DNA of 64,000 nt from assembly GCA_016867315.1 (NCBI GenBank), contig VGJV01000003.1, forward strand, positions 27,429 to 91,428, written 5' to 3'. A program made the position numbers and the translations under genes. Origin of the DNA: Candidatus Liptonbacteria bacterium (GTDB lineage Bacteria > Patescibacteriota > Minisyncoccia > UBA6257 > 2-01-FULL-56-20). The notes beneath the pieces are model-generated. The model was not told the origin of the DNA and searched no databases. It saw nothing but the letters and a program-made list of their open reading frames with translations. This document shows, piece after piece, positions 31,352-58,431 of the stretch (within the stretch, counting starts at the first letter, position 1; each line of letters starts with the position of its first letter).

Positions 31352-31421
31352 TCAAAATCTAATAACTAATGACAGAGACCACATCTTGTTATACGTTATA
31401 AGTCATTAGTTAAGTATTCTT

Positions 31422-35165: not shown

Positions 35166-36215
35166 TTGTATGATGGGTCCACAACTATGGAACGGAATCC
35201 CAAAGAATTAAATGAAATCTTGGCCACTCTTACGCCTCGACAGCGAGAGGTAATTGTGCGCCGATTTGGCCTTGGTAAATCTGAAGGTGAAACCCTTGCG
35301 GAAATAGGGGTGCGCTTTGGCATTACACGCGAACGAGTTCGCCAAATTGAGGCTTCTGCAATGAAACTTCTAAGGGAAAAAATCGAAGCGCATCCTACCC
35401 TGGGAAACTTCGTCGCTCAAACCTGCTCGTTCCTTAAGTCTCGCGGGGGAGTAGTGCCGGCACAAGCGTTCATTGAAGAAGCCGCTTCACGTTTTCCTGG
35501 TATTGAAGCTTCGCATGTCGCGCTTCTCGCGGATGCAACCAAAGCTTTTTCTTTTTATCCCGGGGATCGGCACTTCCATTCGCTCTACTATCTTTCGAAA
35601 AACGACTTGAAAGAAGCAAAAAGTTTTGTGGACTCGTGGGAAAAGCACTTGAGCGACAAGAAGGAATCGGTATTGGGAGGAGCTTACGACGCACACTTGG
35701 GCAAATTTGTAGAAGAAAAGAAGCTGCCTTCTGCGCACGTAGAAAGCTACCTTACCGCTTCAAAAAAGATTCATGAGAATCCTTATGGAGATGTCGGACT
35801 CGCGGCATGGGCAGAAATCAAACCTCAAACCATCCGGGATCGAATTTATCTGGTGCTAAAGAAAGAGGGGAAGCCTTCGCACTTCCGGGATATTGCCGAA
35901 AAAATTACGGCCGCTGGGTTTGATTCGCGTCCTGCGCTCGCGGCAACCGTGCACAATGAACTTATTAAGGATCCCCGTTTTGTCTTGGTGGGCCGCGGAA
36001 TGTACGCCCTGAAAGAACATGGCTATGAAACCGGTACCGCACGAGAAATAATCCGCAAAATCTTGGCAGAGCAGGGAGCTATGCACCCTAAAGAAGTAAT
36101 CCTCGCCGCCCAAAAGAATTGGTTCTTCAAACCGAATACTATCCTTGTGAATCTCCAGAATCGCTCTCACTTCGAGCGATTGCCGGACGGGCGGTATAAG
36201 GTGCTTGAAAACTAA
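35166..36215 (+). CDS. sigma-70 region-4 (HTH) domain protein with an extended C-terminal domain
   Basis: N-terminal LTPRQREVIVRRFGLGKSEGETLAEIGVRFGITRERVRQIE is a sigma-70 r4/LuxR-like HTH. The rest is unassigned; the C-terminal region is possibly HARE-HTH-like. Confidence 0.5.
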   Translation: MYDGSTTMERNPKELNEILATLTPRQREVIVRRFGLGKSEGETLAEIGVRFGITRERVRQIEASAMKLLREKIEAHPTLGNFVAQTCSFLKSRGGVVPAQAFIEEAASRFPGIEASHVALLADATKAFSFYPGDRHFHSLYYLSKNDLKEAKSFVDSWEKHLSDKKESVLGGAYDAHLGKFVEEKKLPSAHVESYLTASKKIHENPYGDVGLAAWAEIKPQTIRDRIYLVLKKEGKPSHFRDIAEKITAAGFDSRPALAATVHNELIKDPRFVLVGRGMYALKEHGYETGTAREIIRKILAEQGAMHPKEVILAAQKNWFFKPNTILVNLQNRSHFERLPDGRYKVLEN

Positions 36216-36286
36216 GACGAGAAAATAGCAAGTGCGACCCCCGCCCATGGTATACATCGGCGGGGGTTGTTCTATAATAAAGAAGC

Positions 36287-37642
36287 ATGGGTTTCGATCT
36301 CGGCGGAATTATCATTGAATTTTTAGACCTCACCAAATGGTTCTGGGTCTTTTTTATTCTATGGCCGCTCTTTAAGTCCACTTGGATCGGGTGGAGGCAG
36401 TTTGAATATGAGCATTCAAGCCAGTTCCGGCAAAATATGTTCGAGATCCGAATTCCTCGAGAAATCCGTAAGAGTCCTCGCGCGATGGAACAGGTACTTA
36501 TGGCACTTCATTCGTTGCGAAATGTAGCCGGAGACTTCGAGGAAATTTGGAAAGACGGAGAAATCACCAAATGGTTTACGCTCGAGATTTGCAGCTTCGG
36601 AGGAGAAATTCGTTTTTTTATTCGGTATTATTACAAGCAAAGGCCCCTCGTGGAGGCTGCGTTCTTCTCATATTATCCGGACGTTGAGCTTGTAGAGGTT
36701 GATGATTATATGGAAGATCTGCCGAAAGATATGGATGAGGTGTATGCCAAGGGATTGAGCATTTGGGGAGCAGAAATGGTGTTAAGAAAAGAGGAAGCAT
36801 ACCCTATTCGCACCTACCCTTTATTTGAAGCTCCAGATGAAGAACGGCAATATGATCCGATCTCTCTTACTCTTGAAGTACTAGGAAAAGCTAAAAAAGA
36901 AGAATTTATAGGCGTACAATTTTTGATTTCTCCCGCTTCAGATTGCTGGCAGGATGAATGGAAAGGACTCGTAGAACATCTCAAAGAACAAAGCGGCAAA
37001 AAACAAGGCGCCGCCGCGAAACCTAAAACCAAAACCGAATTCCCAGGAGGAATACTTCCCGCATTTCACGTGGAAAGCCCCAAAGAAGACCCGCTGGCTT
37101 CGCTTCGAGTCACACGGACTCCCGGAGAAACAAATGTTCTTGAGGCTATGGAAAATAATCTCTCCAAGCCCGCGTTTGAGACTGTAGCTCGTTTTATATA
37201 TCTTTCACCCTCGCCTCTTTTCTACGATTCCTTTGCCCGCCGTGGTATCGCAGGAATGTTCAATCAATACGCCGCGCAAGACCTGAATTCCTTCAAAAGA
37301 AATGACGAGGTAAGTACCCGTGTTCGGCCTTGGAATTGGCCTCATGTATTCTGGAATATCCGTGCGGAATATCGTAAGTCGGGATTACTATGGCAGTATA
37401 GACATCGACTAATGCCATTCCATACTTTTATGGCGAAACTCATCACTTCCCATTGGTTTTATTGGAATTTCAATTCAAAGACCATTACGCTAAATGTAGA
37501 AGCGATCGCAACACTTTTTCATCCGCCCACTTTTCTCGTGCTTACTGCGCCGCATATTAGACGCGTCGAAAGCCGCAAGACTGGCCCCCCTGCGGGACTT
37601 GCCATATACGGAAACGAAAAAGACATCGAACGATTTCAATGA
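36287..37642 (+). CDS. hypothetical membrane-anchored protein (451 aa), first gene of a 3-gene module ending in a TrwB/VirD4-like ATPase
   Basis: N-terminal TM helix (WFWVFFILWPLF), then a large soluble domain with no known motif. Confidence 0.5.
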   Translation: MGFDLGGIIIEFLDLTKWFWVFFILWPLFKSTWIGWRQFEYEHSSQFRQNMFEIRIPREIRKSPRAMEQVLMALHSLRNVAGDFEEIWKDGEITKWFTLEICSFGGEIRFFIRYYYKQRPLVEAAFFSYYPDVELVEVDDYMEDLPKDMDEVYAKGLSIWGAEMVLRKEEAYPIRTYPLFEAPDEERQYDPISLTLEVLGKAKKEEFIGVQFLISPASDCWQDEWKGLVEHLKEQSGKKQGAAAKPKTKTEFPGGILPAFHVESPKEDPLASLRVTRTPGETNVLEAMENNLSKPAFETVARFIYLSPSPLFYDSFARRGIAGMFNQYAAQDLNSFKRNDEVSTRVRPWNWPHVFWNIRAEYRKSGLLWQYRHRLMPFHTFMAKLITSHWFYWNFNSKTITLNVEAIATLFHPPTFLVLTAPHIRRVESRKTGPPAGLAIYGNEKDIERFQ

Positions 37643-37678
37643 CGTCATTAGTTATAAATCATCAGGTATAGTTTCGTT

Positions 37679-38194
37679 ATGTCTACCTCCACTCCATTAC
37701 TCACGTCTGCAGACTTTTGGCTTTCGGTGCATACCGTTTTGGCCTGGATTTTTCTTGTGCTCGATCTCGCTCTTTTAGTGGGTTTCGTATATGCATTTAG
37801 AAAAATAATCAAATTTCGCCCGCACGAACTTAAACCTGGCGAACGTCACCCCACAGGAATGGCCTCTCCTCAAATAACGGTATTCCGCGAACGCTGGGAG
37901 GCAGTCATGCGGCGTTTCGATCTAAATTCTCCCGAAGCCATGCGATTTTCCATCCTCGAAGCTGATATCCTCGTAGACGCCATTCTTAAAGATTCCGGCT
38001 TAGAGGGAGAAAATTTAGCAGACCGCTTAGCCAAAGTAACCCCGGAAAGCATTCAAAGTCTAAATCAGCTTTGGAAATCTCATCGGCTGAGAAATAAACT
38101 TGCAGAAACAAGTGAGTATGAGTTGTCTGCCGAAGAGGCGCAATCTGCCATTCAAGGGTATGAAGCCTTCCTTAAGGAAATAAAAATACTTTAA
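37679..38194 (+). CDS. hypothetical small membrane-anchored protein (171 aa)
   Basis: One N-terminal TM helix (VLAWIFLVLDLALLVGFVYAF). Tightly spaced between 36287..37642 and the ATPase. Confidence 0.45.
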   Translation: MSTSTPLLTSADFWLSVHTVLAWIFLVLDLALLVGFVYAFRKIIKFRPHELKPGERHPTGMASPQITVFRERWEAVMRRFDLNSPEAMRFSILEADILVDAILKDSGLEGENLADRLAKVTPESIQSLNQLWKSHRLRNKLAETSEYELSAEEAQSAIQGYEAFLKEIKIL

Positions 38195-38238
38195 CTAAAC
38201 CGTCATTTGTTATAAGTTATTAGTCATACGCCAATTCG

Positions 38239-39705
38239 ATGCCAAGACCCGGGAAAGTCCAAATAATTAAATATGCGCCTCCGCCCCCGGAGCTGCCCAT
38301 ATTCGGACAGGTAGACCCTAAAGAATGTTCTTTCATCGGTCGCACGAACTATGTTGCGGCTCTTGAAGAAAAGAAATTCATTTTCGGTATTAAGCGGAAA
38401 GATCGCCGTCGACACCTCTACATAGTAGGGAAGAGCGGCGTGGGCAAAACCAAGCTCTTAGAGCTCATGATCCGACAGGATATCGCCTATGGTCATGGGC
38501 TCTGCCTTATTGACCCACACGGCGACGTCGTAGACGCTACGATCGATTTCGTTCCGGAAAATCGTATCGAAGATGTGGTAATTATTGATCCGACGGACTT
38601 TGAATATCCGGCTTCCTTCAACCCGCTTTCGAACGTCGACCCTAATTTTAAGCATCAACTTACGCAGGGGCTAATTGAAGTATTGGAAAAGCAATTCGGT
38701 GCGAACTGGACGCCCCGGCTCGAGCACGTGTTCCGTTTCACCTGCTTGGCGCTTTTGGATTATCCTCATGCCACAATGCGCGGCATGATTTCAATGCTCA
38801 CCGATCGGAACTACCGGCAAAAAGTGGTGGAATACATCGAGGACGACATGGTAAAGCGCTTCTGGGCAATTGAATTCGCCGACTGGTCGGAGAAATTCGA
38901 TACAGATGCCATTATTCCACTCGTAAACAAGCTTGGGCAATTCCTTTCAGATCCCATGCTCCGAAACATTTTCGGACAGAAGGAAAATAAAATTAGTTTG
39001 GAACAGCTCATTAATAATAAAAAGATTATTCTCATCAATCTCTCGAAGGGGAGGTTGGGCGAAGAAAATTCGAGCTTCTTTGGTTCTATGTTTATTACAA
39101 AAATCAAACAAGCCGGTATGGCCCGTGCCGGAATGCCCGAAAAAGACCGGCACGATTTCTATCTTTATGTGGACGAGTTCCAAAACGTAGTTACGGAAAC
39201 ATTCGAAAACATCCTCTCCGAGGCTCGCAAATACGGGCTGAACCTCACGGTGGCGCACCAATATATGGGTCAACTCATTCCTAAGGTGCAAGCCGCCGTG
39301 CTGGGAAATGTCGGGAGCATTGTAATTTTCCGGGTGGGCGGTGATGATGCAGTCGCCTTAAAACCTGAAATGGCACCGGTATTCGACGTGAAAGATATGA
39401 TCAACTTAGGAGTTCGAGAGTTTTACATCAAAATGACGATAGATGGAGAGTCGTACGATCCCTTCTCTGCCGAAACGCTCGCGGTGCTTCCCGCTCCGCA
39501 TCGCTCTTTCCGAAAAGAAATAATCGCGGCCTCTCGCCGCAAGTTCGCAATCTCCGCAGATGCTGCGAAGAAACTCATCGCTGAAGAAGAATCCACTATT
39601 CTCCGCAGCGCACAAGAAAAAGCCATCATCGAAGGCAAATCCAAAGGCTCGGGAGGGGGTGCCCCCGCAGCTGAAAGCGAGAAAGTAGCCGAGCCCCTCA
39701 TTTGA
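38239..39705 (+). CDS. soluble P-loop ATPase of the TrwB/TraD/VirD4 (type IV coupling protein, FtsK-HerA superfamily) type, copy 1
   Basis: Walker A GKSGVGKT (38428-38451) is followed about 20 aa later by LIDPHGD, the T4CP DPxGD/E motif. Walker B FYLYVDEF, then LTVAHQYMGQL. No N-terminal TM helices. Confidence 0.7.
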   Translation: MPRPGKVQIIKYAPPPPELPIFGQVDPKECSFIGRTNYVAALEEKKFIFGIKRKDRRRHLYIVGKSGVGKTKLLELMIRQDIAYGHGLCLIDPHGDVVDATIDFVPENRIEDVVIIDPTDFEYPASFNPLSNVDPNFKHQLTQGLIEVLEKQFGANWTPRLEHVFRFTCLALLDYPHATMRGMISMLTDRNYRQKVVEYIEDDMVKRFWAIEFADWSEKFDTDAIIPLVNKLGQFLSDPMLRNIFGQKENKISLEQLINNKKIILINLSKGRLGEENSSFFGSMFITKIKQAGMARAGMPEKDRHDFYLYVDEFQNVVTETFENILSEARKYGLNLTVAHQYMGQLIPKVQAAVLGNVGSIVIFRVGGDDAVALKPEMAPVFDVKDMINLGVREFYIKMTIDGESYDPFSAETLAVLPAPHRSFRKEIIAASRRKFAISADAAKKLIAEEESTILRSAQEKAIIEGKSKGSGGGAPAAESEKVAEPLI

Positions 39706-40565: not shown

Positions 40566-42320
40566 ATGAAAAATGAAGTGAGAAATTGTCAGAATTGTAA
40601 GTCTGATTTCACGATCGAAACGGAAGACTTCAACTTTTATCAGAAAATGCAGGTTCCGCCGCCCACATGGTGCCCAGATTGTCGGCTGGAGCGACGATTG
40701 GCATGGCGGAACGAAAGGGTGCTTTTTAGAAGAACGGACAGCATAACCGGCAAAACACTGCTCGCAGGGTTCCCGCAAGATGTGCCGTTTCCTATCTACG
40801 AACGAAACTATTGGTGGTCAGACGAGTGGGATCCGTTGCAATACGGAAGAGATTTCGATCCCTCAAGACCCTTCCTCGAACAACTGAAAGAACTAATGCA
40901 CACGGTGCCCTGGCCGAGCCGCAGTGTGATGTTCGAGACAAATTCGGAATATACGGATCAAGCCGGACATCTCAAAAATTGCTATCTTTGCTTCAACGCC
41001 GATTACTGCGAGAATTGTCTATATCTGGTCCGAGCGAATACCACCAAAGACACGCTGGATTCGCTGCAAGTTCAAAACTCCGAGCTTTGCTACGATTCGG
41101 TGCTCATCAACAAAAGTTTCCGCATGTTTTATTCATTCGACTGCGATGGCTCGAGTGATATGCATTTCTCAAAGCAGTGCGTGGGCTGTAATCACTGCTT
41201 CGGCTGCGTAGGGCTCCGAAAGAAAAGTTATCACATCTGGAATCAGCCTTATTCGAAGGAGGAATACGAAAAGAAATTGAAAGAAATGAACTTGGGCTCC
41301 CGCGCCTCGATCGAGGCCCTCAAAGCCGAAGCGCGTCGCTTTTGGCTCAAGTTCCCGTGCAAATACTACCGCGGGATTCGAAATATAGATTCGAGCGGAG
41401 ATATGCTTATCGATACAAAGAATGCCAAACAGTGTTACTGGGTAACGAATGCAAAAGACGTGCGCTACTGCCAAGATTTATACATCCAATCTGAAGACTG
41501 TTATGACTACACAGTCTGGGCAAATCATGGTACGCGGATTTATGAATGTCTCACCTGCGGCGAGGAAGTGCAGAACCTGAAATTTTGCTTCGATTGTTGG
41601 CCTGCCTGCCGAGATCTCGAATATTCCGTAGGCTGCCATTCGACTTCGGATTGCTTCGGCTGTGTCGGTTTGAAGAAAAAGCAATATTGCATACTGAATA
41701 AACAATATTCCAAAGAAGAATACGAAAAAATTCGCGAGCAGATTATCGCGCAGATGAAAGAAATTCCTTATGTGAATGAGAAGGGAATCGAATATAGGTA
41801 CGGAGAATTCTTGCCGACTGAATTTTCTCCTTTTGCGTATAACGAGACAATGCTTCTCGATGCGTTCCCACTCACTAAGGAAGAGGCGATAAAGAAGGGA
41901 TATCGCTGGCGGGATCCCGATCGCAAAGAGTATCAAACGACCCTTAAAGCTGCGGAGCTGCCGGATGCTATCAATGAAACAAAAGAAGAGATTACAAAGG
42001 AAATCCTCGAATGTGCAAAGTGCAAAAAAGCCTATCGAATTGTGGCGCCTGAACTCGCATTTCATAAGCGGCTCGAAATCCCATTGTCTGATATATGCCA
42101 AGATTGCAGGCATGCGGAACGGTTCACATTATTGAATTCTCCTCGATATTTCTCCAGGGCTTGCATGTGCGCCGGAGAAGCAGATGCCACGGGAGTGTAT
42201 AAAAATACCGCGACGCACTCACATGCAGGGCAGTGTCCCAGCAAATTTGAAACCGCGTATACTCCCGACCGCCCCGAGATTATCTATTGCGAAGAGTGTT
42301 ATCAAAAAGAAACCACTTAA
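40566..42320 (+). CDS. Cys-rich paralog family member 1 (584 aa), unknown function
   Basis: N-terminal C-x2-C-x21-C-x2-C-R (NCQNCKSDF…FYQKMQVPPPTWCPDCRLERR) and the WDP…YGRDFDPSRPF block. Two internal modules end C.GC.GL(R/K)KK.Y.I.N.QYSKEEYEK, followed by GEFLP…SPFAYNET. The C-terminus has C..C…YRI…FH…IP.S.IC.DCRH and a terminal C.C…NTATHSH…CP..FET.YTPDRPEIIYCEECYQ. Confidence 0.8.
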   Translation: MKNEVRNCQNCKSDFTIETEDFNFYQKMQVPPPTWCPDCRLERRLAWRNERVLFRRTDSITGKTLLAGFPQDVPFPIYERNYWWSDEWDPLQYGRDFDPSRPFLEQLKELMHTVPWPSRSVMFETNSEYTDQAGHLKNCYLCFNADYCENCLYLVRANTTKDTLDSLQVQNSELCYDSVLINKSFRMFYSFDCDGSSDMHFSKQCVGCNHCFGCVGLRKKSYHIWNQPYSKEEYEKKLKEMNLGSRASIEALKAEARRFWLKFPCKYYRGIRNIDSSGDMLIDTKNAKQCYWVTNAKDVRYCQDLYIQSEDCYDYTVWANHGTRIYECLTCGEEVQNLKFCFDCWPACRDLEYSVGCHSTSDCFGCVGLKKKQYCILNKQYSKEEYEKIREQIIAQMKEIPYVNEKGIEYRYGEFLPTEFSPFAYNETMLLDAFPLTKEEAIKKGYRWRDPDRKEYQTTLKAAELPDAINETKEEITKEILECAKCKKAYRIVAPELAFHKRLEIPLSDICQDCRHAERFTLLNSPRYFSRACMCAGEADATGVYKNTATHSHAGQCPSKFETAYTPDRPEIIYCEECYQKETT

Positions 42321-42321
42321 A

Positions 42322-44034
42322 ATGCAGAATATGAACTGCAAACACTGCAAAAAAGATTTTGCAGTCACTGCAGATGATCTACGGTGGTATGAAAAATTCG
42401 GAGTATGTATCCCAAAGCTTTGCCCACAGTGTCGGGCGCAGCGGCGGTTAGTCTTTCGAAACGAACGAAGCTTCTACAAGCGTCCCTGCGATAAGTGCAA
42501 AAAGGACGTGGTTTCGATGTATAGCCCCAACAAACCGTATACCGTGTACTGCCACGATTGTTGGTTTAGGGATGACTGGAATCCGCTTGATTTCGGTAGA
42601 GATTATGACTCCTCGCGGCCCTTTTTCGACCAGTTCAAAGAATTATGGGAAAAGGTGCCAAAAATTTCGCTTATCCATGTCCGGAGCGTGAATTCGGAAT
42701 ATCTGAATATCTGCGCCGATAATAAAAACTGCTACATGATTGTGGAATCTTCTAATAATGAAGATTCTATTCATTGCTATTGGATTCAAAAAACAAGGAA
42801 TTGTGTGGACACTTCTTTTTCCCATGAGTGCGAGCGCTGTTACGAATCGGACGACATTTACAATTGTTATCAAACACACTACAGCAAGGGGTGCCACGAC
42901 TGCCGGGATAGTTATTTTCTGTTCGATTGCAGAAATTGTTCTAATTGCATTGGCTGCGTGAATCTGCGCAACAAACAATATTGCGTGTTTAATGAACAAC
43001 TCTCCAAAGAGGAGTATCAAAAAATTTTGAAGGAAGCTCGACTCGACACTGCATCGGGCATAGAAAAATTGCGTGGCCAATTTGAAGAGTTTAAGAAAAA
43101 ACAGCCTCGCAAATTTGCGGAAGCGGTAAATGTAGTGAATTGCTCGGGGAATTATTTGAAGGATGCGAAAAACTGCAGCGACTGCTTCCATACATATGAA
43201 GCCGAAGACTGTAAATATGCGGTACACGCCTGGCGTGATGCGAAAGACTGCGTGGATACGGACACCACGGGCAGAGGAGTGCAGATGGTCTATAACTCGC
43301 ATAACACTGGCATCAATGCCTCGAATTGTATTTGCTGTGCGCTCTGCTGGGGAAACAACTTTCTTACTTACTGCGCGTATTGTTATGACTCACAAGACTG
43401 CTTTGCCTCCACCGGCCTCCGTAAAAAACAGCACTGCATTTTGAATAAACAATATTCCAAAGAAGACTACGAAAAACTCAAAACTCAAATTATTGCAGAT
43501 ATGAAACGCGAGGGCATATATGGGGAATATTTCCCGCCCTCCTTAAGCACGTTTGGATACAATGAGGCCTGTGTGCTCGAGCAAATACCGCTTATGAAAG
43601 AAGAAGCGCTCTCACAAGGTTTCAAATGGGAAGACCACCCTCGTGGCGCGTTCGGGAAAGAAACGGCAGGTTGGGAAAAAATTCCGGATTCTATCCTCGA
43701 GCTTCAATGCGATGCCTCCAAAGAAATTTTTGCATGTACTGCGTGTAGAAAAAATTATCGAATTATCTCTGACGAGCTTACGTTCTATAAATCGTTGGAA
43801 ATTCCCTCGCCGCGATTGTGTCCCGATTGCCGGCACGTGCGTCGCTTTACCGCGCGGGGTCCCAATCATGTAAAGGAAAAAAAATGTAGCTGCGAAGGTA
43901 TTAGAGCAGGGGGTTATCTGAATACTGCCAACACTTTCACGGAGAACATCCATGTCCTAACCGCTTTAAAACTGCCCATTATGAGGATTCCAATGCAATC
44001 CTTTACTGCGAAGAGTGTTATAACTCCGAAGTAG
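42322..44034 (+). CDS. Cys-rich paralog family member 2 (about 570 aa)
   Basis: Same architecture as member 1. The N-terminus has two complete CxxC…CxxC ribbons (NCKHCKKDF…CPQCR, CDKCKKDV…CHDC). The ORF track starts at 42184, overlapping member 1; the start is more likely at 42322 (MQNMNCKHC…). Confidence 0.8.
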   Translation: MQNMNCKHCKKDFAVTADDLRWYEKFGVCIPKLCPQCRAQRRLVFRNERSFYKRPCDKCKKDVVSMYSPNKPYTVYCHDCWFRDDWNPLDFGRDYDSSRPFFDQFKELWEKVPKISLIHVRSVNSEYLNICADNKNCYMIVESSNNEDSIHCYWIQKTRNCVDTSFSHECERCYESDDIYNCYQTHYSKGCHDCRDSYFLFDCRNCSNCIGCVNLRNKQYCVFNEQLSKEEYQKILKEARLDTASGIEKLRGQFEEFKKKQPRKFAEAVNVVNCSGNYLKDAKNCSDCFHTYEAEDCKYAVHAWRDAKDCVDTDTTGRGVQMVYNSHNTGINASNCICCALCWGNNFLTYCAYCYDSQDCFASTGLRKKQHCILNKQYSKEDYEKLKTQIIADMKREGIYGEYFPPSLSTFGYNEACVLEQIPLMKEEALSQGFKWEDHPRGAFGKETAGWEKIPDSILELQCDASKEIFACTACRKNYRIISDELTFYKSLEIPSPRLCPDCRHVRRFTARGPNHVKEKKCSCEGIRAGGYLNTANTFTENIHVLTALKLPIMRIPMQSFTAKSVITPK

Positions 44035-45941: not shown

Positions 45942-47609
45942 ATGAGCTCGACTCGTTCCTGCAGGCAATGCAGGAACGCATTCTCTGTGGATGCTTCAGA
46001 CCTCTCATTTTATGAAAAAATGGGAGTTCCCGTGCCGGCACTCTGCCCCGAGTGCCGATTTCGACGTCGTGCCGGGTTTCGAAATGAACGCACGCTCTAC
46101 AAGCAAAACTGCAAACTTTGCGCCAAGTCGGTAATCACCATGTACAACCCAAAATCACCGCTTGTTGTGTACTGTAATGACTGCTGGGCTTCAGATAAAT
46201 GGGATCCGAGCGCATATGCGATGGAGTATGATCCTTCCCGCCCTTTCTTCGATCAGTTAAAAGAACTCTCTCAAAAAGTTCCTAAATCCGGAACGTATTC
46301 GAGTGCATGGGCAGGTCCGAATGTAAGAAGTGAATACACTAACTTCGCGGGGAGTAATAAAGACTGTTATCTTTGCTTTAATTCAGGCCCGGAAAATGAA
46401 AATTGCGCCTATTCCAGAGGCATCATGCGTTCGCGGGATACATTCGATACCTACTACGGTTATGAAACCGAAAGGGGATATGAGGGAATAAATATGCAAA
46501 AAAGCTCAGGTGTTGCCTGGGGACAAAATATCCTCGAATGTCTCGATTCCTGGTTTCTTTTGAACTGTGCGAGCGTCCAAAATTGCTTTGGATGTGTGAA
46601 TCTGCGTCATAAATCGAATGCCTTCCTAAATGAGCCTCTTGAAAAAGAAGAGTGGAAACGAAAAATTTTAGAAATTACCGGTAGCTATCAAAGAATTGAA
46701 GAATTTAAAAAACAATTTCAGGAACATGCACTCAAATTTCCGCGGCGAGAAAATAATAATTTGAAATCAGTTGATTGCACGGGGGATTACATATTCGAAT
46801 CCAAAAACTGTCATGACTCATTTGAGGTGGGTAATGGAGAAAATTTGAAATATGTGTTCTCTGTAAAGTTCACCAAAGACAGTTATGACTTAATTGGACA
46901 CGGGCGGAATTCTGAACTGCTGCTTGAGGGAGTGGGAGCCGGAGCAAGTCAGCGCATCATAGCCGGTTGGTGGATAGAAAATGCCCATGATGTGGAATAT
47001 TCTTTTGCGACGCGCGCGAGCGAATATTGTTTCGGCTGCGACGGAATAAAAGGAGGGAAGTATCGGATATTAAATAAGCAGTATTCAGAGGAAGAATATA
47101 AGAAACTTCGCGCGCATATTATAGAAGAATTGAAAAACATCGGAGAATATGGGCTCTTTTTTCCGCCCTCGCTCTCGTTTTTCGCATATAACGAAACCAT
47201 CGGACAGGACAATCTGCCGCTCTCCAAAGAAGAAGCTATCCGACAAGGCTTCCGCTGGGAGGAAAATCTTCCCGCCACGAAGGGTCAGGAAACACTAAAA
47301 GCGGAACAACTCCCGGATCACATTAAGGATGTGCAGGATTCGATTTTGAGCGAAATTCTCGCTTGTATTTCCTGCGGTCGGAATTATCGGCTTATCAAGC
47401 CGGAGCTAGAAGCATATCGACGAGCACTAATTCCCATTCCAAGAAAGTGCTTCAATTGTCGGCACCTAGATAGACTGACTCGCCGGGGCCCGTTTAAATT
47501 ATTCGACCGCACCTGCGCAAAGTGTAATAAAGCAATCCGAACCAACTACGCTCCAGAACGACCCGAAATTGTGTATTGCGAGACTTGTTACCAAAATGAA
47601 GTTATATAG
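45942..47609 (+). CDS. Cys-rich paralog family member 3 (555 aa)
   Basis: SCRQCRNAFSVDASDLSFYEKMGVPVPALCPECRFRRR, a second ribbon CKLCAKSV…CNDC, the KWDPSAY..EYDPSRPFFDQLKEL block, CFGCVNLRHK, ILNKQYSEEEYKK, FFPPSLSFFAYNETI and C-terminal CISCGRNYRL…CFNCRH…IVYCETCYQNE. Confidence 0.8.
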   Translation: MSSTRSCRQCRNAFSVDASDLSFYEKMGVPVPALCPECRFRRRAGFRNERTLYKQNCKLCAKSVITMYNPKSPLVVYCNDCWASDKWDPSAYAMEYDPSRPFFDQLKELSQKVPKSGTYSSAWAGPNVRSEYTNFAGSNKDCYLCFNSGPENENCAYSRGIMRSRDTFDTYYGYETERGYEGINMQKSSGVAWGQNILECLDSWFLLNCASVQNCFGCVNLRHKSNAFLNEPLEKEEWKRKILEITGSYQRIEEFKKQFQEHALKFPRRENNNLKSVDCTGDYIFESKNCHDSFEVGNGENLKYVFSVKFTKDSYDLIGHGRNSELLLEGVGAGASQRIIAGWWIENAHDVEYSFATRASEYCFGCDGIKGGKYRILNKQYSEEEYKKLRAHIIEELKNIGEYGLFFPPSLSFFAYNETIGQDNLPLSKEEAIRQGFRWEENLPATKGQETLKAEQLPDHIKDVQDSILSEILACISCGRNYRLIKPELEAYRRALIPIPRKCFNCRHLDRLTRRGPFKLFDRTCAKCNKAIRTNYAPERPEIVYCETCYQNEVI

Positions 47610-47681: not shown

Positions 47682-49361
47682 ATGGGACAGAAAATAGAAA
47701 TGAATGCTGAGATAAGAAATTGCAGAAGCTGCAAGCAAGACTTCACGATTGAACCGGACGATTTCACGTTTTATTCAAAAGTTGGAGTGCCCGCGCCGCA
47801 CGATTGTCCGGTGTGTCGTCAGCGTCGGAGGATGATTTTTCGAAATTTCAAGACGCTCTACAAGCGAAACTCCGATCGTTCTTCAAAGCCGATGATCTCG
47901 ATGTATGCTCCGCACGCATCATACAAGGTTTTCACCCACGATGAATGGTGGGCGGACAATTGGGATGCTCGGCAATATGGCCGAGACTTTGATTTTTCGA
48001 GACCATTTTTTGATCAATTTAAAGAACTTCTCCTTGCGGTGCCAAAGATGAATTTGGTAAGTGTTCAAAGTGAAAATTGTGAATACTCTAATTTTGCGTG
48101 GAAGAGCAAAAGCTGCTATCTCGTCTTCGGCTGCGTAGATAACGACACGTGCGCATACGGTCACATTGTTTGGGAATCGAAAGATTCTGTAGATAATCTC
48201 TATCTTTATAAATCTGAGCTTTGTTTTGAATGTGTGGATTGTTTATGGAGCTACGGCTTACTCTGGTCTCAAGAATGCGAGAGTTGCAGCGAGAGTATTG
48301 GGCTTTTCGACTGCCGGAGCTGTACCAACTGCATAGGTTGCGTAGGTCTAAAACAAAAGTCCTACCACATATTCAATCAGCCGGTAAGTAAAGAAGAATA
48401 TGTAAAGTTTTTAGCCGAGCATCCGCTTACCGATCCAAAAACACTTCCATATATTCTGGAAAAACAGCGTGAATTGAGGCGTCAAATACCTCAACGTCAT
48501 TTTTTTGGCTCACATAATAATGCGGTATCAGGAAATCACATATACCATGCAAAAAATGTGCGCTATTCCTTCGACGTAAAGGGAGGAGAAAACTCTAAAT
48601 TTGCATATACGACCCGCAAAGTAGTAGATGGCTATGATGTCGCGTTCTCACCAGACATAGAACTCGCATATCAAGCGCTCACCTCGCGCGGGAACGGGAT
48701 CTACTTCGCGCATATGAATTACGAATGCAGTGATATCTATTATTCGGATAGCTGCCAAAATGTGCATAACGCGTTTGGCTGCGCGGGGCTCAAGGGCGGA
48801 GAATATTTGATTTTGAATAAACAGTATTCAAAAGAAGAATACGAAACACTAGAAGAGAAGATCGTCGAGCATATGAAGAAAACAGGGGAGTGGGGAGAGT
48901 TCTTCCCGGCGACTCTTTCACCGTTCGCATATAACGAGTCCATCGCGCAGGAATATTTTCCACTAAGAAAGGAAGAAGTCCTCGCGTCGGGCTTTCGGTG
49001 GGAAGAAAATATTCCCCGCACTTCCGGACAGGAAACCATCTCTCATGATGCGCTTCCGAAAAATCCTGCCGAATTCGACGCAGATTCACTTTTAAAACAG
49101 GTTTTGAAGTGTGACAGTTGTGGTTACAATTTCCGTTTCACCGCCCAAGAAATTCCATTTTATAAACGATTAAATCTCCCCTTGCCCCGCAATTGTTTTA
49201 ACTGCCGTCACGAACGTCGCATGAAACAGCGAAATATACGTAAGCTATGGGATGGAAGCTGCGCGAAGTGCAATACAAAGTTTCAAACCTCCTACTCTCC
49301 GGAGCAGCAAAAGGAATTTAAAGTTTACTGCGACTCCTGCTATCTTCAAGAAATGGGTTAG
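47682..49361 (+). CDS. Cys-rich paralog family member 4 (559 aa)
   Basis: NCRSCKQDFTIEPDDFTFYSKVGVPAPHDCPVCRQRRR. The second N-terminal ribbon is degenerate (Cys lost). CIGCVGLKQKSYHIFNQPVSKEEY, LILNKQYSKEEYE, SPFAYNESIAQEYFPL and C-terminal CDSCGYNF…CFNCRH…KVYCDSCYLQE. Confidence 0.8.
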   Translation: MGQKIEMNAEIRNCRSCKQDFTIEPDDFTFYSKVGVPAPHDCPVCRQRRRMIFRNFKTLYKRNSDRSSKPMISMYAPHASYKVFTHDEWWADNWDARQYGRDFDFSRPFFDQFKELLLAVPKMNLVSVQSENCEYSNFAWKSKSCYLVFGCVDNDTCAYGHIVWESKDSVDNLYLYKSELCFECVDCLWSYGLLWSQECESCSESIGLFDCRSCTNCIGCVGLKQKSYHIFNQPVSKEEYVKFLAEHPLTDPKTLPYILEKQRELRRQIPQRHFFGSHNNAVSGNHIYHAKNVRYSFDVKGGENSKFAYTTRKVVDGYDVAFSPDIELAYQALTSRGNGIYFAHMNYECSDIYYSDSCQNVHNAFGCAGLKGGEYLILNKQYSKEEYETLEEKIVEHMKKTGEWGEFFPATLSPFAYNESIAQEYFPLRKEEVLASGFRWEENIPRTSGQETISHDALPKNPAEFDADSLLKQVLKCDSCGYNFRFTAQEIPFYKRLNLPLPRNCFNCRHERRMKQRNIRKLWDGSCAKCNTKFQTSYSPEQQKEFKVYCDSCYLQEMG

Positions 49362-53494: not shown

Positions 53495-55477
53495 GTGGCG
53501 ATACATAACATCAAACATCCCTACAAAAAGGTGGCTCCAACTGCCCCGTTGTGGCATAATTTGGAAAGCGCAGACGCGCAACCCAAAAAAATGGGCTTCG
53601 AACCAGAGAAAGACGTCATCTATTTCGGCCGTACCGATTTCCGGAACACCAACCGGCTTTTTGGCATCAAAAGGAATGATCGCCGTCAACATGTCTACGT
53701 TGTCGGTAAAACCGGTACCGGTAAAAGTGTTCTTTTGAATAATATGATTGTGCAGGATATGGCGAACGGCGAAGGACTTGCCGTCGTCGATCCGCACGGA
53801 GAATTGGTGGAAGGGATCTTGGAAAAAGTCCCCGAGGATCGCATTGATGATGTAATTTATTTCAACCCGGCGGATATCGACTCTCATATTGGTTTTAATG
53901 TACTCGAACTTCCCGATCCGAAATACAAACACCTGGTGGCTTCGGGACTCATGGGCATTTTCACTAAGATTTGGGAGAATGTCTGGTCTGCAAGAATGGA
54001 ATATATCATGAATAACGCCATATTGGCGTTGTTGGATACTCCCGGTTCCACACTTTTAGGAATCACGAGAATTCTCGTAGACAAAGATTACCGACAGCAG
54101 ATCATTGCAAACATCAAAGACCCGGTGGTAAAGGCGTTCTGGGTTCATGAATATGAAACATGGCGTGACCAGTTCCGAAACGAAGCTATTGCTCCGATTC
54201 AAAACAAAGTAGGGCAGTTCCTTTCGACCGCACTCGTACGAAATATTGTGGGGCAGCAGCGGAGCACGATCGATATTTTCAATCTCATGAACGAAGGGAA
54301 AATATTTCTCATAAACGTCTCTAAGGGAAGAATCGGGGAAGATAACTCTGCGCTTTTGGGAGCCATGCTCATCACAAAGATGCAGCTTTCTGCAATGGAA
54401 CGTATCCGCGTACCCGAAGAAGAACGCGTGGATTTCTTCCTTTATGTCGACGAGTTTCAGAATTTTGCGACTGATTCATTTGCTGGGATATTGTCCGAAG
54501 CCAGAAAATATCGCTTGGATCTTATCCTCGCACATCAATACATAGGACAATTAGTAACTGATGTCTCGACTAAAGTGCGGGATGCGATCTTCGGAAACGT
54601 AGGAACGATGATCATCTTCCGTGTGGGCGCGACCGATGCGGAATTTTTGGAAAAAGAATTTGAGCCGGAATTCACTCCTCAAGATATAGTAAACCTCCCG
54701 AACTACGCGATTTACTTGAAGCTTATGGTGGATGGAGTAACCTCAAGACCTTTTTCAGCCTCGACACTTCCTCCTTTTAAGGTGGCGACCTCCGAAATGA
54801 CGAAGGAAATGATTATTAAAAACTCGCAAAAGCGATATGCGAGGCCCAGGGGAGTGGTAGAGGAAGAAATAAACCGATGGAGTGGCGTAATGACTACCGC
54901 AGAAGGTGCCCCCACGCTTCCCACGCAAAGTAAGGAGGGCGCATATCTCGCGACGTGCTCTTCCTGCGGTAAAACCACTACGGTTCCATTTGCTCCGGAT
55001 CCATCACGCCCAATTTACTGTAAAGACTGTCTGAATCGCGTGAAGGCCGGAGAGGTATTGCCAGTAAAACTCATGCCAAGATCGAAAAAAGTTCGGGATT
55101 CTTCGAAAGATGCGCTCGCAGCGGTAGGTATCGAATTTGCAGTAGAACCCAAGAGCGAAGAAGAGGTAGAAGAAGAAACCACTCCTGAGGCAGAAACCGA
55201 AGAGGCTGCCGCAACCACTCCTGCTGAAATTACAAAAGCCGAACAAGAAACAGAAAAATCGGAAGAAGCAGCGGAATCTACCCCCGAAGAAACCGCTCCG
55301 AAAGCCGAAGAGGCCAAACCGCAAACGAAAGGAATTTCGCTTTCTGAACTCAAACCCCCGAAGAAGACTCCAAAAATGAAAGAGCGCACTGCTCCGGAAA
55401 TAGATGTGGAGGAATTACGCAAATCCATCGCGGCTTCCCTTGATCAAATTTTAAGCAAAGACGAAGAGAAAAAATGA
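53495..55477 (+). CDS. soluble TrwB/TraD/VirD4-type P-loop ATPase, copy 2, with a C-terminal zinc ribbon and an acidic low-complexity tail
   Basis: Paralog of 38239..39705 (LFGIKRNDRRQHVYVVGKTGTGKSVLL…VVDPHGELVEG; Walker B FFLYVDEFQNF; LILAHQYIGQL). The extra C-terminus carries CSSCGKTTTVPFAPDPSRPIYCKDC, then an E/T/A/P-rich tail. Confidence 0.7.
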   Translation: MAIHNIKHPYKKVAPTAPLWHNLESADAQPKKMGFEPEKDVIYFGRTDFRNTNRLFGIKRNDRRQHVYVVGKTGTGKSVLLNNMIVQDMANGEGLAVVDPHGELVEGILEKVPEDRIDDVIYFNPADIDSHIGFNVLELPDPKYKHLVASGLMGIFTKIWENVWSARMEYIMNNAILALLDTPGSTLLGITRILVDKDYRQQIIANIKDPVVKAFWVHEYETWRDQFRNEAIAPIQNKVGQFLSTALVRNIVGQQRSTIDIFNLMNEGKIFLINVSKGRIGEDNSALLGAMLITKMQLSAMERIRVPEEERVDFFLYVDEFQNFATDSFAGILSEARKYRLDLILAHQYIGQLVTDVSTKVRDAIFGNVGTMIIFRVGATDAEFLEKEFEPEFTPQDIVNLPNYAIYLKLMVDGVTSRPFSASTLPPFKVATSEMTKEMIIKNSQKRYARPRGVVEEEINRWSGVMTTAEGAPTLPTQSKEGAYLATCSSCGKTTTVPFAPDPSRPIYCKDCLNRVKAGEVLPVKLMPRSKKVRDSSKDALAAVGIEFAVEPKSEEEVEEETTPEAETEEAAATTPAEITKAEQETEKSEEAAESTPEETAPKAEEAKPQTKGISLSELKPPKKTPKMKERTAPEIDVEELRKSIAASLDQILSKDEEKK

Positions 55478-56148
55478 GATTTGATATTCTCTCGATTTTC
55501 CCCGACATATTTTCCTCGTATGTAAGCGAGTCGCTCTTTGCGCGGGCAATAAAGAAGAGTCTTCTCCAAATCAAAATTCATGACCTCCGCAAATGGAGTA
55601 GAGAGCGACATCGCAAGGTAGATGATCGTCCTTTCGGAGGCGGACCGGGAATGGTATTCCAGGTGGAACCAATACATCGAGCCGTCGAAGCGATTCAGCG
55701 CCAAACAAAAAAATTAAAGCGTCGGCGGATAATTCTTTTTTCCACTCGAGGTAAAAAGCTGGATGCAAACACTGCGAAGCGTCTTTCGAAATATGATCAG
55801 CTTACGCTCATCTGCGGCCGCTATGAGGGAGTGGACGAAAGAGTGGCCGACCACATTGCCGATGAAGAAATCTCAATAGGGGATTATGTACTCTCCGGAG
55901 GAGAGCTTCCTGCGCTGGTACTCATGGAGGCGATAAGCCGTTTCAAAAAAGGATTTCTTGGCACCCGCGAGTCTCTCGAAGAAATAAAAGGTTTCTATCC
56001 CGTATACACCCGTCCCGCCTCATTTACTCCTAAATCCGGCAAGCGCTCCTGGAAAGTACCCGAGGTGCTCCTCCGTGGTAACCATGCCGCAATCGATGTC
56101 TGGCGCCGAAAATACGGCGAAGATGCAAGTAGGAGAATACACGCTTAA
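55474..56148 (+). CDS. trmD: tRNA (guanine37-N1)-methyltransferase TrmD
   Basis: MRFDILSIFPDIF…, GGGPGMV and the SPOUT knot region. Confidence 0.85.
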   Translation: MRFDILSIFPDIFSSYVSESLFARAIKKSLLQIKIHDLRKWSRERHRKVDDRPFGGGPGMVFQVEPIHRAVEAIQRQTKKLKRRRIILFSTRGKKLDANTAKRLSKYDQLTLICGRYEGVDERVADHIADEEISIGDYVLSGGELPALVLMEAISRFKKGFLGTRESLEEIKGFYPVYTRPASFTPKSGKRSWKVPEVLLRGNHAAIDVWRRKYGEDASRRIHA

Positions 56149-57553: not shown

Positions 57554-58431
57554 AAACCAATCTCCAAAAATTTCTGCTCCCGAGTATCGCCTCACTCCTT
57601 ATACTGAATGTGTTCGTATGGCACTCCGTATGGAAGGGGCTCCCGGATCAAAATCCTTCGCTCCATTTCCTGGATGTAGGTCAGGGAGATGCCACCCTCC
57701 TCAAGCTTCCGGGCAATATATCAATTTTGACAGATGCAGGTCCAGACCGAAAGGTAGTGCAGGCAGTAAATGAACTATTGGGTCTAGATCGGCGCTATAT
57801 TGATATAGGAATCATCACTCATCCACAGCGAGACCATTATGGAGGATTTATCGATCTACTCAAGCACTTCAAATTTGGAGCAATAATTACGAATGGGCGC
57901 AATGCGGATACGGGAAAAGAAGCGTGGCGGGAATTTTTAGCCACCATACAGTCTGAAAATATCCCGCATATCGTACTGCGGGCAGGAGATCGAATTCGCT
58001 ATGCGAATAATAAAATAGATTTTTTATCTCCCGGACCCAATCTTTTGAAAAGCAAGGAGTTAAATGACACCAGCTTTGTAAATCGAATCCAAACTCCGGC
58101 TTTTTCCGCGCTCCTCACGGGAGATATAGGCATAAAAGTGGAACAATTTCTCTTAAAATCGGGGATCTCTCTCAAAACCGACATCTTAAAAGTCGCGCAC
58201 CATGGGTCTAAGTTTTCTTCAAACAAAGTGTTTTTAAATGCGGCGAATCCACAGATTGCACTGATTGGAGTGGGCAAAAATTCATACGGCCATCCCACAA
58301 ATGAAGTACTGAGCAGACTGAGAGCTGCCTCAGTAGGGGCGGTTCTCCGAACCGATGAGCGAGGCACAGTGAGCATTATCCCGCAAGGCGAGAAGCTTCT
58401 CATTTTCACACACCGCGCCAAAGGAGAGTAG
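57544..58431 (+). CDS. MBL-fold metallo-hydrolase corresponding to the ComEC C-terminal beta-lactamase-like domain, encoded as a separate overlapping ORF
   Basis: HxHxDH-like motif (THPQRDHYGG) and VAHHGSKFSS typical of ComEC's lactamase domain. It overlaps the ComEC membrane ORF by 10 nt in another frame. Confidence 0.65.
   Translation: MVLKTNLQKFLLPSIASLLILNVFVWHSVWKGLPDQNPSLHFLDVGQGDATLLKLPGNISILTDAGPDRKVVQAVNELLGLDRRYIDIGIITHPQRDHYGGFIDLLKHFKFGAIITNGRNADTGKEAWREFLATIQSENIPHIVLRAGDRIRYANNKIDFLSPGPNLLKSKELNDTSFVNRIQTPAFSALLTGDIGIKVEQFLLKSGISLKTDILKVAHHGSKFSSNKVFLNAANPQIALIGVGKNSYGHPTNEVLSRLRAASVGAVLRTDERGTVSIIPQGEKLLIFTHRAKGE

Follow-up and report, generated by a model that had tools for sequence, protein, structure and literature searches.

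Patescibacteria carry about two VirD4-like genes per genome, only 148 of 5,713 of them near virB4 (PMC12102498), which leaves the question of what such orphan coupling-protein-like ATPases work with and what they do. In the locus described here, an ATPase gene of this type follows the genes of two membrane-anchored proteins. It lies in a window (the whole stretch of DNA analysed) of 64,000 nucleotides from Candidatus Liptonbacteria. We consider it likely (probability about 0.7) that the three genes constitute one operon-like unit specifying a membrane-tethered, split coupling-protein-like translocase, chromosomal and vertically inherited (Table 1).

The 36- and 44-nt gaps given for the three genes in the first-pass annotation are exact as read from the DNA, and its ORF coordinates and the N-terminal hydrophobic helices of the 451- and 171-aa proteins were likewise recovered. 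In related genomes the module genes are mostly 0 to 20 nt apart or overlap. The spacer that separates the sigma-like gene from the DUF8128 gene contains a GC-rich inverted repeat followed by a T-rich stretch, i.e., a putative terminator, and a sigma-70-type promoter-like site ends 9 nt 5' of the DUF8128 start codon.

Table 1. Features of the locus and its surroundings, numbered along the window
Feature	Position	Strand	Description
Sigma-70 region 4 + HARE-HTH protein gene	35166..36215	+	349 aa; Pfam/NCBIfam
Inverted repeat, GC-rich, then T-rich stretch	36238..36266	+	CCCCCGCC-13 nt-GGCGGGGG, read from sequence; terminator-like
Sigma-70-type promoter-like site	36251..36278	+	TATACA-16-TATAAT; 10/12 consensus match only
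DUF8128 gene	36287-37642	+	ORF, 451 aa
Two tandem heptamers	37644..37657	+	GTCATTA GTTATAA; within 36-nt spacer
HEPN-fold protein gene	37679-38194	+	ORF, 171 aa
Four tandem heptamers	38202..38229	+	GTCATTT GTTATAA GTTATTA GTCATAC; within 44-nt spacer
ATPase gene	38239-39705	+	ORF, 488 aa
Paralogous coupling-protein-like ATPase gene	53495..55477	+	660 aa; 45% identity over 415 aa

The 488-aa protein is a P-loop ATPase (Walker A GKSGVGKT, Walker B LYVDEF) that scored above the Pfam cut-offs for TrwB_AAD_bind (33.9 bits; cut-off, 20.5), T4SS-DNA_transf (31.7; cut-off, 20.1), TraG-D_C (24.6; cut-off, 22), and also DUF87, and far under the NCBIfam equivalog cut-offs for SXT_TraD (55.9 versus 366 bits) and CD1115 (51.3 versus 250). 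No match to AAA_10 or CagE_TrbE_VirB was found in Pfam. With TrwB as the query, phmmer detected 109 related ATPases, up to an E value of 2e-10; TrwK, the Bacillus VirB4-like protein, and gp155 matched none of them, and TrsE gave only 2 marginal matches. A PDB sequence search returned only a marginal match to the TrwB P-loop, and hydrophobic segments were absent from both the ATPase and its distant orthologues. Judged from its sequence, the protein is thus a soluble motor of the VirD4/TrwB coupling-protein type within the FtsK/HerA superfamily. Its median identity across genomes is 80.9%, versus 57.3% for SecF, and few proteins at the locus are as conserved as the motor, which is under very strong purifying selection. 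The 660-aa paralogue encoded further along the window has a C-terminal treble-clef zinc finger and no adjoining DUF8128 gene; in other lineages, it is the zinc-finger-type ATPase that adjoins DUF8128.

A motor of this kind might instead be a housekeeping DNA pump unrelated to type IV secretion systems (T4SSs), such as an FtsK-like septal segregation motor or a ComEC uptake motor. This fairly unlikely reading draws on its membership of the FtsK/HerA superfamily and the DNA-translocating coupling-protein type (PMC12857230), the core-gene behavior of the ATPase, the DNA-binding type of its sigma-r4/HARE-HTH neighbor, and the presence of comEC near such motors, 2 to 3 genes from the ATPase gene in one distant contig and, in the window itself, 2 genes away from the paralogue. 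However, neither an FtsK_SpoIIIE nor a gamma domain was detected in the 488-aa protein with Pfam and NCBIfam, the proximity of comEC is seen in a few loci only and may be coincidence, and ComEC is dispensable for the viability of Saccharibacteria (PMC12857230). The literature found on FtsK in Patescibacteria consisted of transcriptome studies of Saccharibacteria, which have no bearing on Paceibacteria.

The two upstream proteins had been described as lacking recognizable domains, a description that has to be abandoned for both, the 171-aa protein having a predicted HEPN fold (see below) and the 451-aa protein belonging to Pfam PF26449 (DUF8128). The latter assignment comes from a precomputed Pfam match on the identical protein and extends to nearly all of the 120 homologues listed; our own Pfam and NCBIfam scans, with a Pfam copy without the PF26449 model, gave no match. 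UniRef names the relatives “DUF8128 domain-containing protein,” and the domain comprises at least 1,386 sequence clusters. The N-terminal hydrophobic helix of the 451-aa protein (aa 7 to 26; Kyte-Doolittle score, 1.63) is weaker than that of the 171-aa protein, its orthologues scoring 1.8 to 2.5, and the AF2 model places a long helix at residues 5 to 42. The body of the protein is alpha/beta, predicted to be cytoplasmic, with a VirB4-like fold which, on structural similarity only, with 265 residues aligned to TrwK, we infer to be the counterpart of the VirB4 N-terminal domain. Its C-terminal tail, at about aa 405 to 445, is unstructured yet highly conserved (VLTAPHxxRVESRKxGPPAGLxIYG).

At the sequence level, two possible identities of DUF8128 were ruled out: detectable homology to TrwK, for which hhalign found nothing, and identity with TrsD, where hhalign against pSK41 TrsD gave a probability of 0.1, a single-sequence target that limits sensitivity. 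No relatives emerged from a PDB sequence search, from tblastn against phage records, or when the DUF8128 alignment was run against the viral contigs of IMG/VR. A literature search found no papers on DUF8128 and none on Parcubacteria in combination with DUF87.

The gene order of the trio is kept in 76 of the 76 related genomes that have all three genes. Among more divergent Patescibacteria, the ATPase gene lies directly 3' of the DUF8128 gene in 63 of 76 loci, 11 of the 76 having no ATPase next to DUF8128, and the HEPN gene occurs in 1 of 80 loci. Since the pair is kept where the HEPN gene is nearly always missing, the deep core of the module is the DUF8128-ATPase pair, and the 171-aa gene is ruled out as a universal member. 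The conserved trio of membrane anchor, adaptor, and ATPase proposed in the first-pass annotation therefore survives as to gene order among close relatives and the anchor, which is on DUF8128, and finds support in the protein fusions described below, but as a trio it is limited to one sub-lineage. In every case, distant relatives included, it is DUF8128 that carries the transmembrane helix, the ATPase having none.

Throughout the Parcubacteria-type relatives sampled, the module occupies the same fixed place on the chromosome, in the order secDF–sigma-r4/HARE-HTH–DUF8128–ATPase. The sigma-r4/HARE-HTH gene, which the earlier trio did not include, is directly upstream in most of the first set of loci (set 1) and in 58 of 64 divergent loci, and it is kept upstream also at one locus with otherwise different flanks; its product is a possible fourth, DNA-binding partner. 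In two set 1 loci, the ATPase gene does not adjoin, and the small protein is followed instead by an unrelated 510- to 532-aa protein with a weak GlxA beta-barrel match.

Set 1 comes entirely from one class of related genomes, in which the flanking secDF and dnaKJ genes are syntenic too, and common descent within that class could account for much of the conserved order. That inherited order is the whole explanation, the three genes being functionally unconnected neighbors, is nevertheless exceedingly improbable: the adjacency outlasts a change of flanks, the transmembrane anchor and the motor are complementary, the genes are separated by 0 to 20 nt or overlap in relatives, and the two domains are fused in phage G and Bacillus plasmids. 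In five distant contigs inspected that have differing flanks, the ATPase gene adjoins DUF8128 in four and lies a few genes downstream in the fifth. As to the fusions, phrog_5156 spans the DUF8128 and ATPase proteins colinearly, and its member gp156 of Bacillus phage G (825 aa) joins a DUF8128-like part to the ATPase. DUF8128 aligned to gp156 with an hhalign probability of 89.7 and to an 885-aa Bacillus licheniformis plasmid protein (WP_128472464.1, “DUF87 domain-containing protein,” plasmid NZ_CP035190.1) with a probability of 95.5 (E value, 1.6e-8), the sequence homology to the fused proteins covering about 120 to 140 residues of DUF8128 only. The ATPase matches the C-terminal half of WP_128472464.1, whose gene is the first in a plasmid conjugation operon. 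These fusions, together with the loci with different flanks, are the strongest independent support for the unit.

A single, strongly hydrophobic N-terminal segment marks the 171-aa protein (about aa 13 to 44; Kyte-Doolittle score, 2.52), giving a transmembrane helix at about aa 11 to 45, which is followed by a predicted cytoplasmic helical domain with the four-helix HEPN fold. Pfam and NCBIfam scans gave no match for it, nor did a PDB sequence search with its profile; across the family, 14 of 80 members match Pfam HEPN_Swt1 weakly. The family motif is AHRxRNxLVH, its RNxLVH consensus (RNxxxH) being kept in 67 of 80 orthologues. In this genome, the final His is replaced by Glu at position 143, so that the catalytic Rx4-6H motif is absent and the segment reads RNKLAE. 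Because the motif His is Glu, the protein is probably not a nuclease here; it is probably a lineage-specific, membrane-anchored HEPN-fold subunit with a regulatory or nucleic-acid-binding role.

A HEPN protein beside a HerA-related ATPase also calls to mind antiphage defense, in which the ATPase would sense infection and a membrane HEPN RNase would kill or arrest the cell. The HEPN fold, the RNxxxH motif of most family members, and PADLOC matches of the ATPase to mad8 (E value, 2e-12) and, weakly, to HerA models are consistent with such a system. Defense systems are patchy and fast-evolving, whereas this locus is chromosomal and fixed in essentially every sampled relative, looks vertically inherited, and encodes an ATPase that is 81% identical. 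In addition, the HEPN gene is all but missing from the divergent loci that keep the pair and its product has lost the His in this genome, PADLOC reported no complete system, and the 451- and 171-aa proteins had no PADLOC match at all. We thus regard a defense role as very improbable.

The recurring motif pointed out upstream of the HEPN and ATPase genes, GTCATTAGTTATAA, is present in the window as an exact copy at 37644-37657 and a 1-mismatch copy at 38202-38215, with 13 matches in all (up to 3 mismatches) versus 4.2 expected. It resolves into a tandem heptamer array, (GTYATNN)2-4, that occurs at 6 intergenic places compared to 0.8 in shuffles. No conserved feature of the module is involved, however, as 77 of the 79 related genomes lack the motif in their orthologous spacers, an absence that rules out a conserved operon or regulon signal. 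On this comparison of spacers, it appears to be a repeat specific to the genome rather than an operon signal.

No VirB4 homologue was found in the window or within ±5 to 6 kb in 165 related loci, and a Pfam scan of 26 window ORFs showed no relaxase, VirB6, or other T4SS family. This bears on a doubtful but credible alternative, namely, that the module is the coupling protein of a Patescibacteria T4SS encoded elsewhere (near dnaA), with DUF8128 docking the motor on a VirB4/VirB6 channel through which DNA or effector proteins are delivered to a host cell. In its favor, the motor belongs to the coupling-protein type, the fused relatives stand where a Bacillus conjugation operon has its coupling protein, beside a Replic_Relax gene, and partners of the VirB3/VirB8 type are plausible contacts for a VirB4-like N-terminal domain. 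T4SS genes are, moreover, widespread in Patescibacteria, with coupling-protein genes often away from virB4 (PMC12102498, PMC12857230). Against this stand the missing T4SS genes nearby and the observation that in Saccharibacteria the T4SS is essential and the T4CP homologue is not, which is weak evidence from a different class (PMC12102498). That the module feeds a distantly encoded T4SS is a speculative alternative.

The fixed chromosomal locus, its spread across relatives, the lack of a nearby VirB4, and the strong purifying selection make a housekeeping job most likely. In the split translocase that we propose, the 488-aa protein would be the motor, having lost the usual N-terminal transmembrane domain, and DUF8128 would supply a membrane helix and a cytoplasmic VirB4-like scaffold for it; the pair is colinear with the fused proteins of phage G and Bacillus conjugative-type plasmids. 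The VirB4 N-terminal domain dimerises. DUF8128 and the ATPase would form a physical complex tethered to the membrane via DUF8128, with the 171-aa protein as an accessory HEPN-fold membrane subunit. Speculatively, the most likely substrate is a nucleic acid, DNA or another, that the neighboring HTH protein passes to the module. A more far-reaching version, tentative and on balance unlikely, is that a monoderm conjugative coupling protein has been domesticated into an essential, T4SS-independent, HTH-guided nucleic-acid translocase of Paceibacteria and probably other Patescibacteria. It might serve, e.g., in imported-DNA scavenging or in chromosome segregation with a minimal division machinery, the membrane HEPN subunit modulating it in one sub-lineage. 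If that were true, the family would be a living intermediate indicating that the VirB4 and VirD4 ATPases once had a common N-terminal domain.

We regard the module as a good lead, short of a discovery, and its translocase function as a proposal. Orphan VirD4-like genes gain candidate partners, i.e., DUF8128, the sigma-r4/HARE-HTH protein and, in one clade, a transmembrane HEPN protein, and DUF8128 gains a fold and a likely role. The conservation of the motor suggests that it serves a core function of the cell in organisms almost entirely uncultured, and a VirB4-type N-terminal domain on a VirD4-type motor, fused or split, bears on the divergence of the two T4SS ATPases.

Among known systems, HEPN proteins (HepT/HEPN toxins, e.g., SO_3166, PDB 5yep, and Swt1-like HEPN proteins) have RNxxxH in common with the 171-aa family. 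The present protein differs from them in its membrane anchorage through an N-terminal transmembrane helix, the location of its gene within an ATPase operon, the His-to-Glu change in this genome, and the lack of an MNT-type antitoxin partner.

The VirD4/TrwB coupling proteins (e.g., TrwB of plasmid R388) have the P-loop core and signature domains in common with the 488-aa ATPase, which would form a hexameric ring, and both are expected to work at the membrane. They have their own N-terminal transmembrane domain, whereas here the anchor is on the neighboring DUF8128. The module is also chromosomal and lacks a nearby VirB4, and the scanned ORFs of the window include neither a relaxase nor another T4SS family; the motor falls short of the equivalog thresholds (TraD, CD1115 family), is paired with a VirB4-NTD-like protein, and is conserved like a core gene.

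In size and domain order, DUF8128 plus the ATPase roughly match the VirB4 ATPases (TrwK of R388, PDB 7o42/7o41/8rtb), in which the N-terminal domain is the membrane-embedded part, to which the ATPase ring is anchored (PMC12857230). Unlike VirB4, the module is split over two genes with a third between them, its motor half is VirD4-like, DUF8128 has no hhalign-detectable sequence similarity to TrwK, and no VirB3, VirB6, or VirB8 neighbors were found near it. A precedent for a separately encoded VirB4 N-terminal part is TrsD/TrsE of the staphylococcal plasmids pSK41/pGO1, where that portion is specified by a separate gene immediately 5' of the one for the motor (PMC12102498). TrsE, in contrast, is a true VirB4 within a T4SS operon, and DUF8128 has no profile similarity to TrsD.

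The fused proteins gp156 and WP_128472464.1 are each one polypeptide rather than separate genes, and their motor identity to the 488-aa ATPase is only about 25 to 27%. By the same criterion that detects the N-terminal helix of DUF8128, WP_128472464.1 has no hydrophobic segment at all and gp156 has only internal ones (aa 182 to 207 and 392 to 410), none N-terminal. Their genes are on mobile elements beside a VirB4-like ATPase, the plasmid neighbors in Bacillus licheniformis also including Replic_Relax, TcpC, TcpE, and a CwlT-like gene, whereas the module here is chromosomal. Both proteins nevertheless follow the order DUF8128, then ATPase, along their length and are the closest detectable relatives of the pair outside Patescibacteria.

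The three ORFs, encoding proteins of 451, 171, and 488 aa, lie in the window where the first-pass annotation had placed them, with intergenic gaps of exactly 36 and then 44 nt. They follow, all on the plus strand, hrcA-grpE-dnaK, a 340-aa membrane protein gene, dnaJ, secD, secF, and a gene whose 349-aa product joins sigma-70 region 4 to a HARE-HTH domain; on the 3' side come a minus-strand gene for a 172-aa four-TM protein and a run of Cys-rich paralogues. A promoter-like site and a hairpin ahead of the first gene fit with independent transcription of the trio as one unit. The 172-aa protein gene, which converges on that of the ATPase, probably does not belong to the module, since tblastn matched it in just 9/80 related loci.

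Coordinates of the module genes, their neighbors, and associated sequence elements in the window
Feature	Position	Strand	Remarks
Dehydrogenase fusion, 808 aa	6669-9095	+
Heptamer array	11392-11419	-	(GTYATNN)x2-4
Heptamer array	11480-11507	+	(GTYATNN)x2-4
Heptamer array	31360-31373	-	(GTYATNN)x2-4
Heptamer array	31388-31408	+	(GTYATNN)x2-4
Sigma-r4/HARE-HTH protein, 349 aa	35166-36215	+	sigma-70 region 4 without regions 2/3
GC-rich hairpin	36238-36266		5' of DUF8128 gene
Promoter-like site	36251-36278		5' of DUF8128 gene
DUF8128 gene, 451 aa	36287-37642	+	ORF
Heptamer array	37644-37657	+	(GTYATNN)x2-4; DUF8128-HEPN spacer
HEPN-fold gene, 171 aa	37679-38194	+	ORF
Heptamer array	38202-38229	+	(GTYATNN)x2-4; HEPN-ATPase spacer
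ATPase gene, 488 aa	38239-39705	+	ORF
Four-TM protein, 172 aa	39767-40285	-
Cys-rich paralogue	40566-42320	+
Cys-rich paralogue	42184-44034	+
Cys-rich paralogue	45942-47609	+
Cys-rich paralogue	47682-49361	+
Cys-rich paralogue	49406-51160	+
Cys-rich paralogue	51522-53309	+
Second ATPase paralogue, 660 aa	53495-55477	+	coupling-protein-like
ComEC, first ORF	56075-57553	+
ComEC, second ORF	57544-58431	+
Cys-rich paralogue	61104-62882	+

Synteny was assessed in 80 species-representative genomes recovered with an alignment of the 451-aa protein family (DUF8128) and in a divergent set of 80 further metagenomic loci. In the related genomes, the ATPase gene was found downstream in 77/80, a positional orthologue of the 171-aa (HEPN-fold) gene in 79/80 (tblastn), and the same order in all 76 with the three genes. 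Among relatives, the conserved membrane-anchor/adaptor/ATPase trio of the first-pass annotation thus holds, with the upstream genes kept beside the ATPase homologues. At depth it is a pair: only 1/80 divergent loci had the HEPN gene, which is a clade-specific insertion between two core genes, while the ATPase directly followed DUF8128 in 63 of the 76 loci informative for adjacency (two more within 4 kb). Five distant contigs with about 30%-identical DUF8128, inspected singly, all carried the ATPase, directly after DUF8128 in four, with differing flanks, and a few genes downstream in the fifth. In two related loci, L021 and L071, one of them from a Wolfebacteria MAG, a gene for an unrelated 510- to 532-aa protein with a weak GlxA beta-barrel match (L021 4791-6389, L071 7742-9274) takes the place of the ATPase after the DUF8128 and TM-HEPN genes; in these genomes the ATPase has either been lost or must be encoded at another site.

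The two core proteins also occur fused. The phrog_5156 profile (824 positions) spans both colinearly, DUF8128 aa 96-250 aligning to positions 78-217 and ATPase aa 34-441 to positions 389-798. A fused protein of this type, Bacillus phage G gp156 (825 aa), matched DUF8128 with an hhalign probability of 89.7 and is 27% identical to the ATPase. Directly upstream of it lies gp155, a VirB4/TraG-P-loop-like ATPase, the two (JN638751.1, 89194-93336) forming a T4SS-type ATPase pair inside a jumbo phage genome. An 885-aa "DUF87 domain-containing protein" is encoded on Bacillus plasmids of about 27 kb; its N terminus matches DUF8128 (hhalign probability 95.5, E 1.6e-8, 30% identity over 120 columns) and its C-terminal part the ATPase. 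On the one plasmid examined, NZ_CP035190.1 of B. licheniformis, its gene heads a Gram-positive conjugation operon with Replic_Relax, TcpC, TcpE, a VirB4-like AAA_10 ATPase, a 760-aa protein, and a CwlT-like hydrolase.

Both upstream proteins, initially thought to lack recognisable domains, do have them. PF26449 (DUF8128) is annotated on nearly all close homologues of the 451-aa protein and on the identical protein of a JGI contig; the assignment comes from this annotation, the local Pfam copy lacking the model. The family comprises 1,386 clusters (50% identity, E <= 1e-3), the best 150 of which are all stand-alone proteins, about 400-550 aa when near full length. Its alignment (121 sequences) has 31 invariant columns and a conserved C-terminal tail, VLTAPHxxRVESRKxGPPAGLxIYG. 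An AlphaFold2 model built with the family alignment (pLDDT 90.5, pTM 0.85) comprises an N-terminal helix (residues 5-42) followed by alpha/beta domains; residues 433-440, part of the tail, lack confident structure (pLDDT <50), as would be expected of a docking peptide. The top Foldseek ranks were ten chains of TrwK, the VirB4 ATPase of R388. Since DUF8128 has no P-loop and TrwK was the sole P-loop ATPase matched, we infer that the likeness is to the VirB4-specific N-terminal domain, which dimerises, embeds in the membrane, binds VirB3/VirB8, and anchors the ATPase ring (PMC12857230). Nothing was detected by hhalign between the DUF8128 and TrwK sequences; the modelled likeness is structural only.

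In Kyte-Doolittle scans, the N-terminal TM helix previously noted on both upstream proteins was found on each, strong in the 171-aa protein (2.52) and weaker and aromatic-rich in the 451-aa one (1.63); the 488-aa ATPase had no hydrophobic segment. A TM helix was present on every DUF8128 examined and on no ATPase. The ATPase exceeds the Pfam thresholds for TrwB_AAD_bind, T4SS-DNA_transf, TraG-D_C, and DUF87, and matches TraD/VirD4-type NCBIfam models, albeit far under equivalog cut-offs. With phmmer, the coupling protein TrwB detected 109 related ATPases (up to 2e-10), TrsE of pSK41 gave only two marginal matches, and TrwK, a Bacillus VirB4-like protein, and phage G gp155 detected none. The motor is therefore VirD4-like, although it has no N-terminal TM domain. 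The ATPase is much more constrained than its neighbors, median identity to the window protein being 80.9%, compared to 57.3% for SecF, 51.6% for DUF8128, and 35.5% for the HEPN protein.

The 171-aa protein, 100% identical to one from a Candidatus Liptonbacteria MAG (Patescibacteria/Parcubacteria), evolves rapidly; word-based searches recovered only 6, then 25 homologues. Its orthologues (153-202 aa) almost always have a strong N-terminal TM helix, and the conserved C-terminal domain shows invariant W73 and D96 and the consensus AHRxRNxLVH, a HEPN-type RNxxxH motif. Pfam HEPN_Swt1 was matched by 14/80 members and other HEPN models by a few. By the positive-inside rule, the basic residues that follow the TM helix would place the HEPN domain in the cytoplasm. 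The motif His, present in 67/80 orthologues, is Glu in the window genome, making a nuclease role doubtful there. This degenerate motif, together with the universal, syntenic, and slowly evolving pattern of the module, makes it unlikely that the genes constitute a defence system.

The sigma-r4/HARE-HTH gene, omitted from the originally proposed module, is immediately 5' of DUF8128 in most genomes, adjacent upstream in 58/64 informative divergent loci, and retained in one locus with otherwise unrelated flanks. Its HARE-HTH domain resembles that of the RNA polymerase delta subunit, and the protein could be either a partner that binds DNA or just a conserved neighbor. The recurring upstream motif noted ahead of the HEPN and ATPase genes, GTCATTAGTTATAA, is indeed present, perfectly matched at 37644 and one mismatch off at 38202, and enriched in the window (13 matches versus 4.2 expected). 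On inspection it is a tandem heptamer array, (GTYATNN)2-4, at six intergenic sites versus 0.8 expected, mostly 10-25 nt 5' of a start codon, including that of dnaJ; several arrays form divergent or inverted pairs. The orthologous spacers of 77/79 related genomes, including a relative with 77%-identical DUF8128, lack the array, and the trio genes there mostly overlap or have gaps of 0-20 nt. The array is therefore no module signature: it is a genome-specific short repeat padding the spacers, or an operator-like element.

The second ATPase shares 45% identity with the first across 415 aa and has a C-terminal treble-clef zinc finger (zf_Tbcl_2) as well as a low-complexity acidic tail. No DUF8128 gene adjoins it, and trmD and comEC lie downstream; in other lineages, the zinc-finger form does adjoin DUF8128 (23/49 complete cases). 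Six of the seven Cys-rich paralogues (555-616 aa, 31-44% identical, 27-45 cysteines each) lie between the two ATPase genes. They have treble-clef-type CxxC...CPxC fingers at both ends and match no Pfam family except, weakly, zf_Tbcl. A Cys-rich homologue follows the ATPase in 51/80 related loci, and the zinc-finger type shared with the second ATPase makes a link to the ATPases possible. ComEC is called as two overlapping ORFs, Competence/DUF4131 domains first and the metallo-beta-lactamase domain second, as also in the distant relative L086. Elsewhere in the window, glucose-6-phosphate and 6-phosphogluconate dehydrogenase domains are fused in one gene, followed by a bacterial-type phosphoglucose isomerase gene.

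Overall, the first observation was largely correct and its interpretation right in spirit, wrong in detail. The evidence best supports a split, membrane-tethered translocase of coupling-protein-like type. In it, DUF8128 would contribute a scaffold resembling the VirB4 NTD together with the membrane helix, the VirD4-type motor, itself soluble, would dock on DUF8128, and the HEPN protein would be an accessory subunit in the window clade. DNA is the default substrate of this motor family and may be the substrate here; comEC is close by in a few loci. The module may serve a distant T4SS. No VirB4 homologue was found in the window or in 165 related loci, and the window ORFs scanned included neither a relaxase nor any other T4SS family. 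No relatives were found in viral contigs. The split translocase probably descends from a monoderm conjugative coupling protein with a VirB4-like N-terminal domain, which fits the Firmicutes-type origin proposed for Patescibacteria T4SS (PMC12102498), and is now a vertically inherited chromosomal gene set. Most likely, it explains a substantial share of the VirD4 homologues described as "orphan" in that study, where only 148 of 5,713 in 2,918 genomes were near virB4 (PMC12102498).

Compared with known systems, pSK41 TrsD is a separately encoded VirB4 N-terminal portion and has no detectable similarity to DUF8128. Coupling proteins are defined by an N-terminal TM domain, which the 488-aa ATPase lacks. 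In the Bacillus 885-aa protein and gp156, both halves are in one chain, whereas in the window module they are separate genes.
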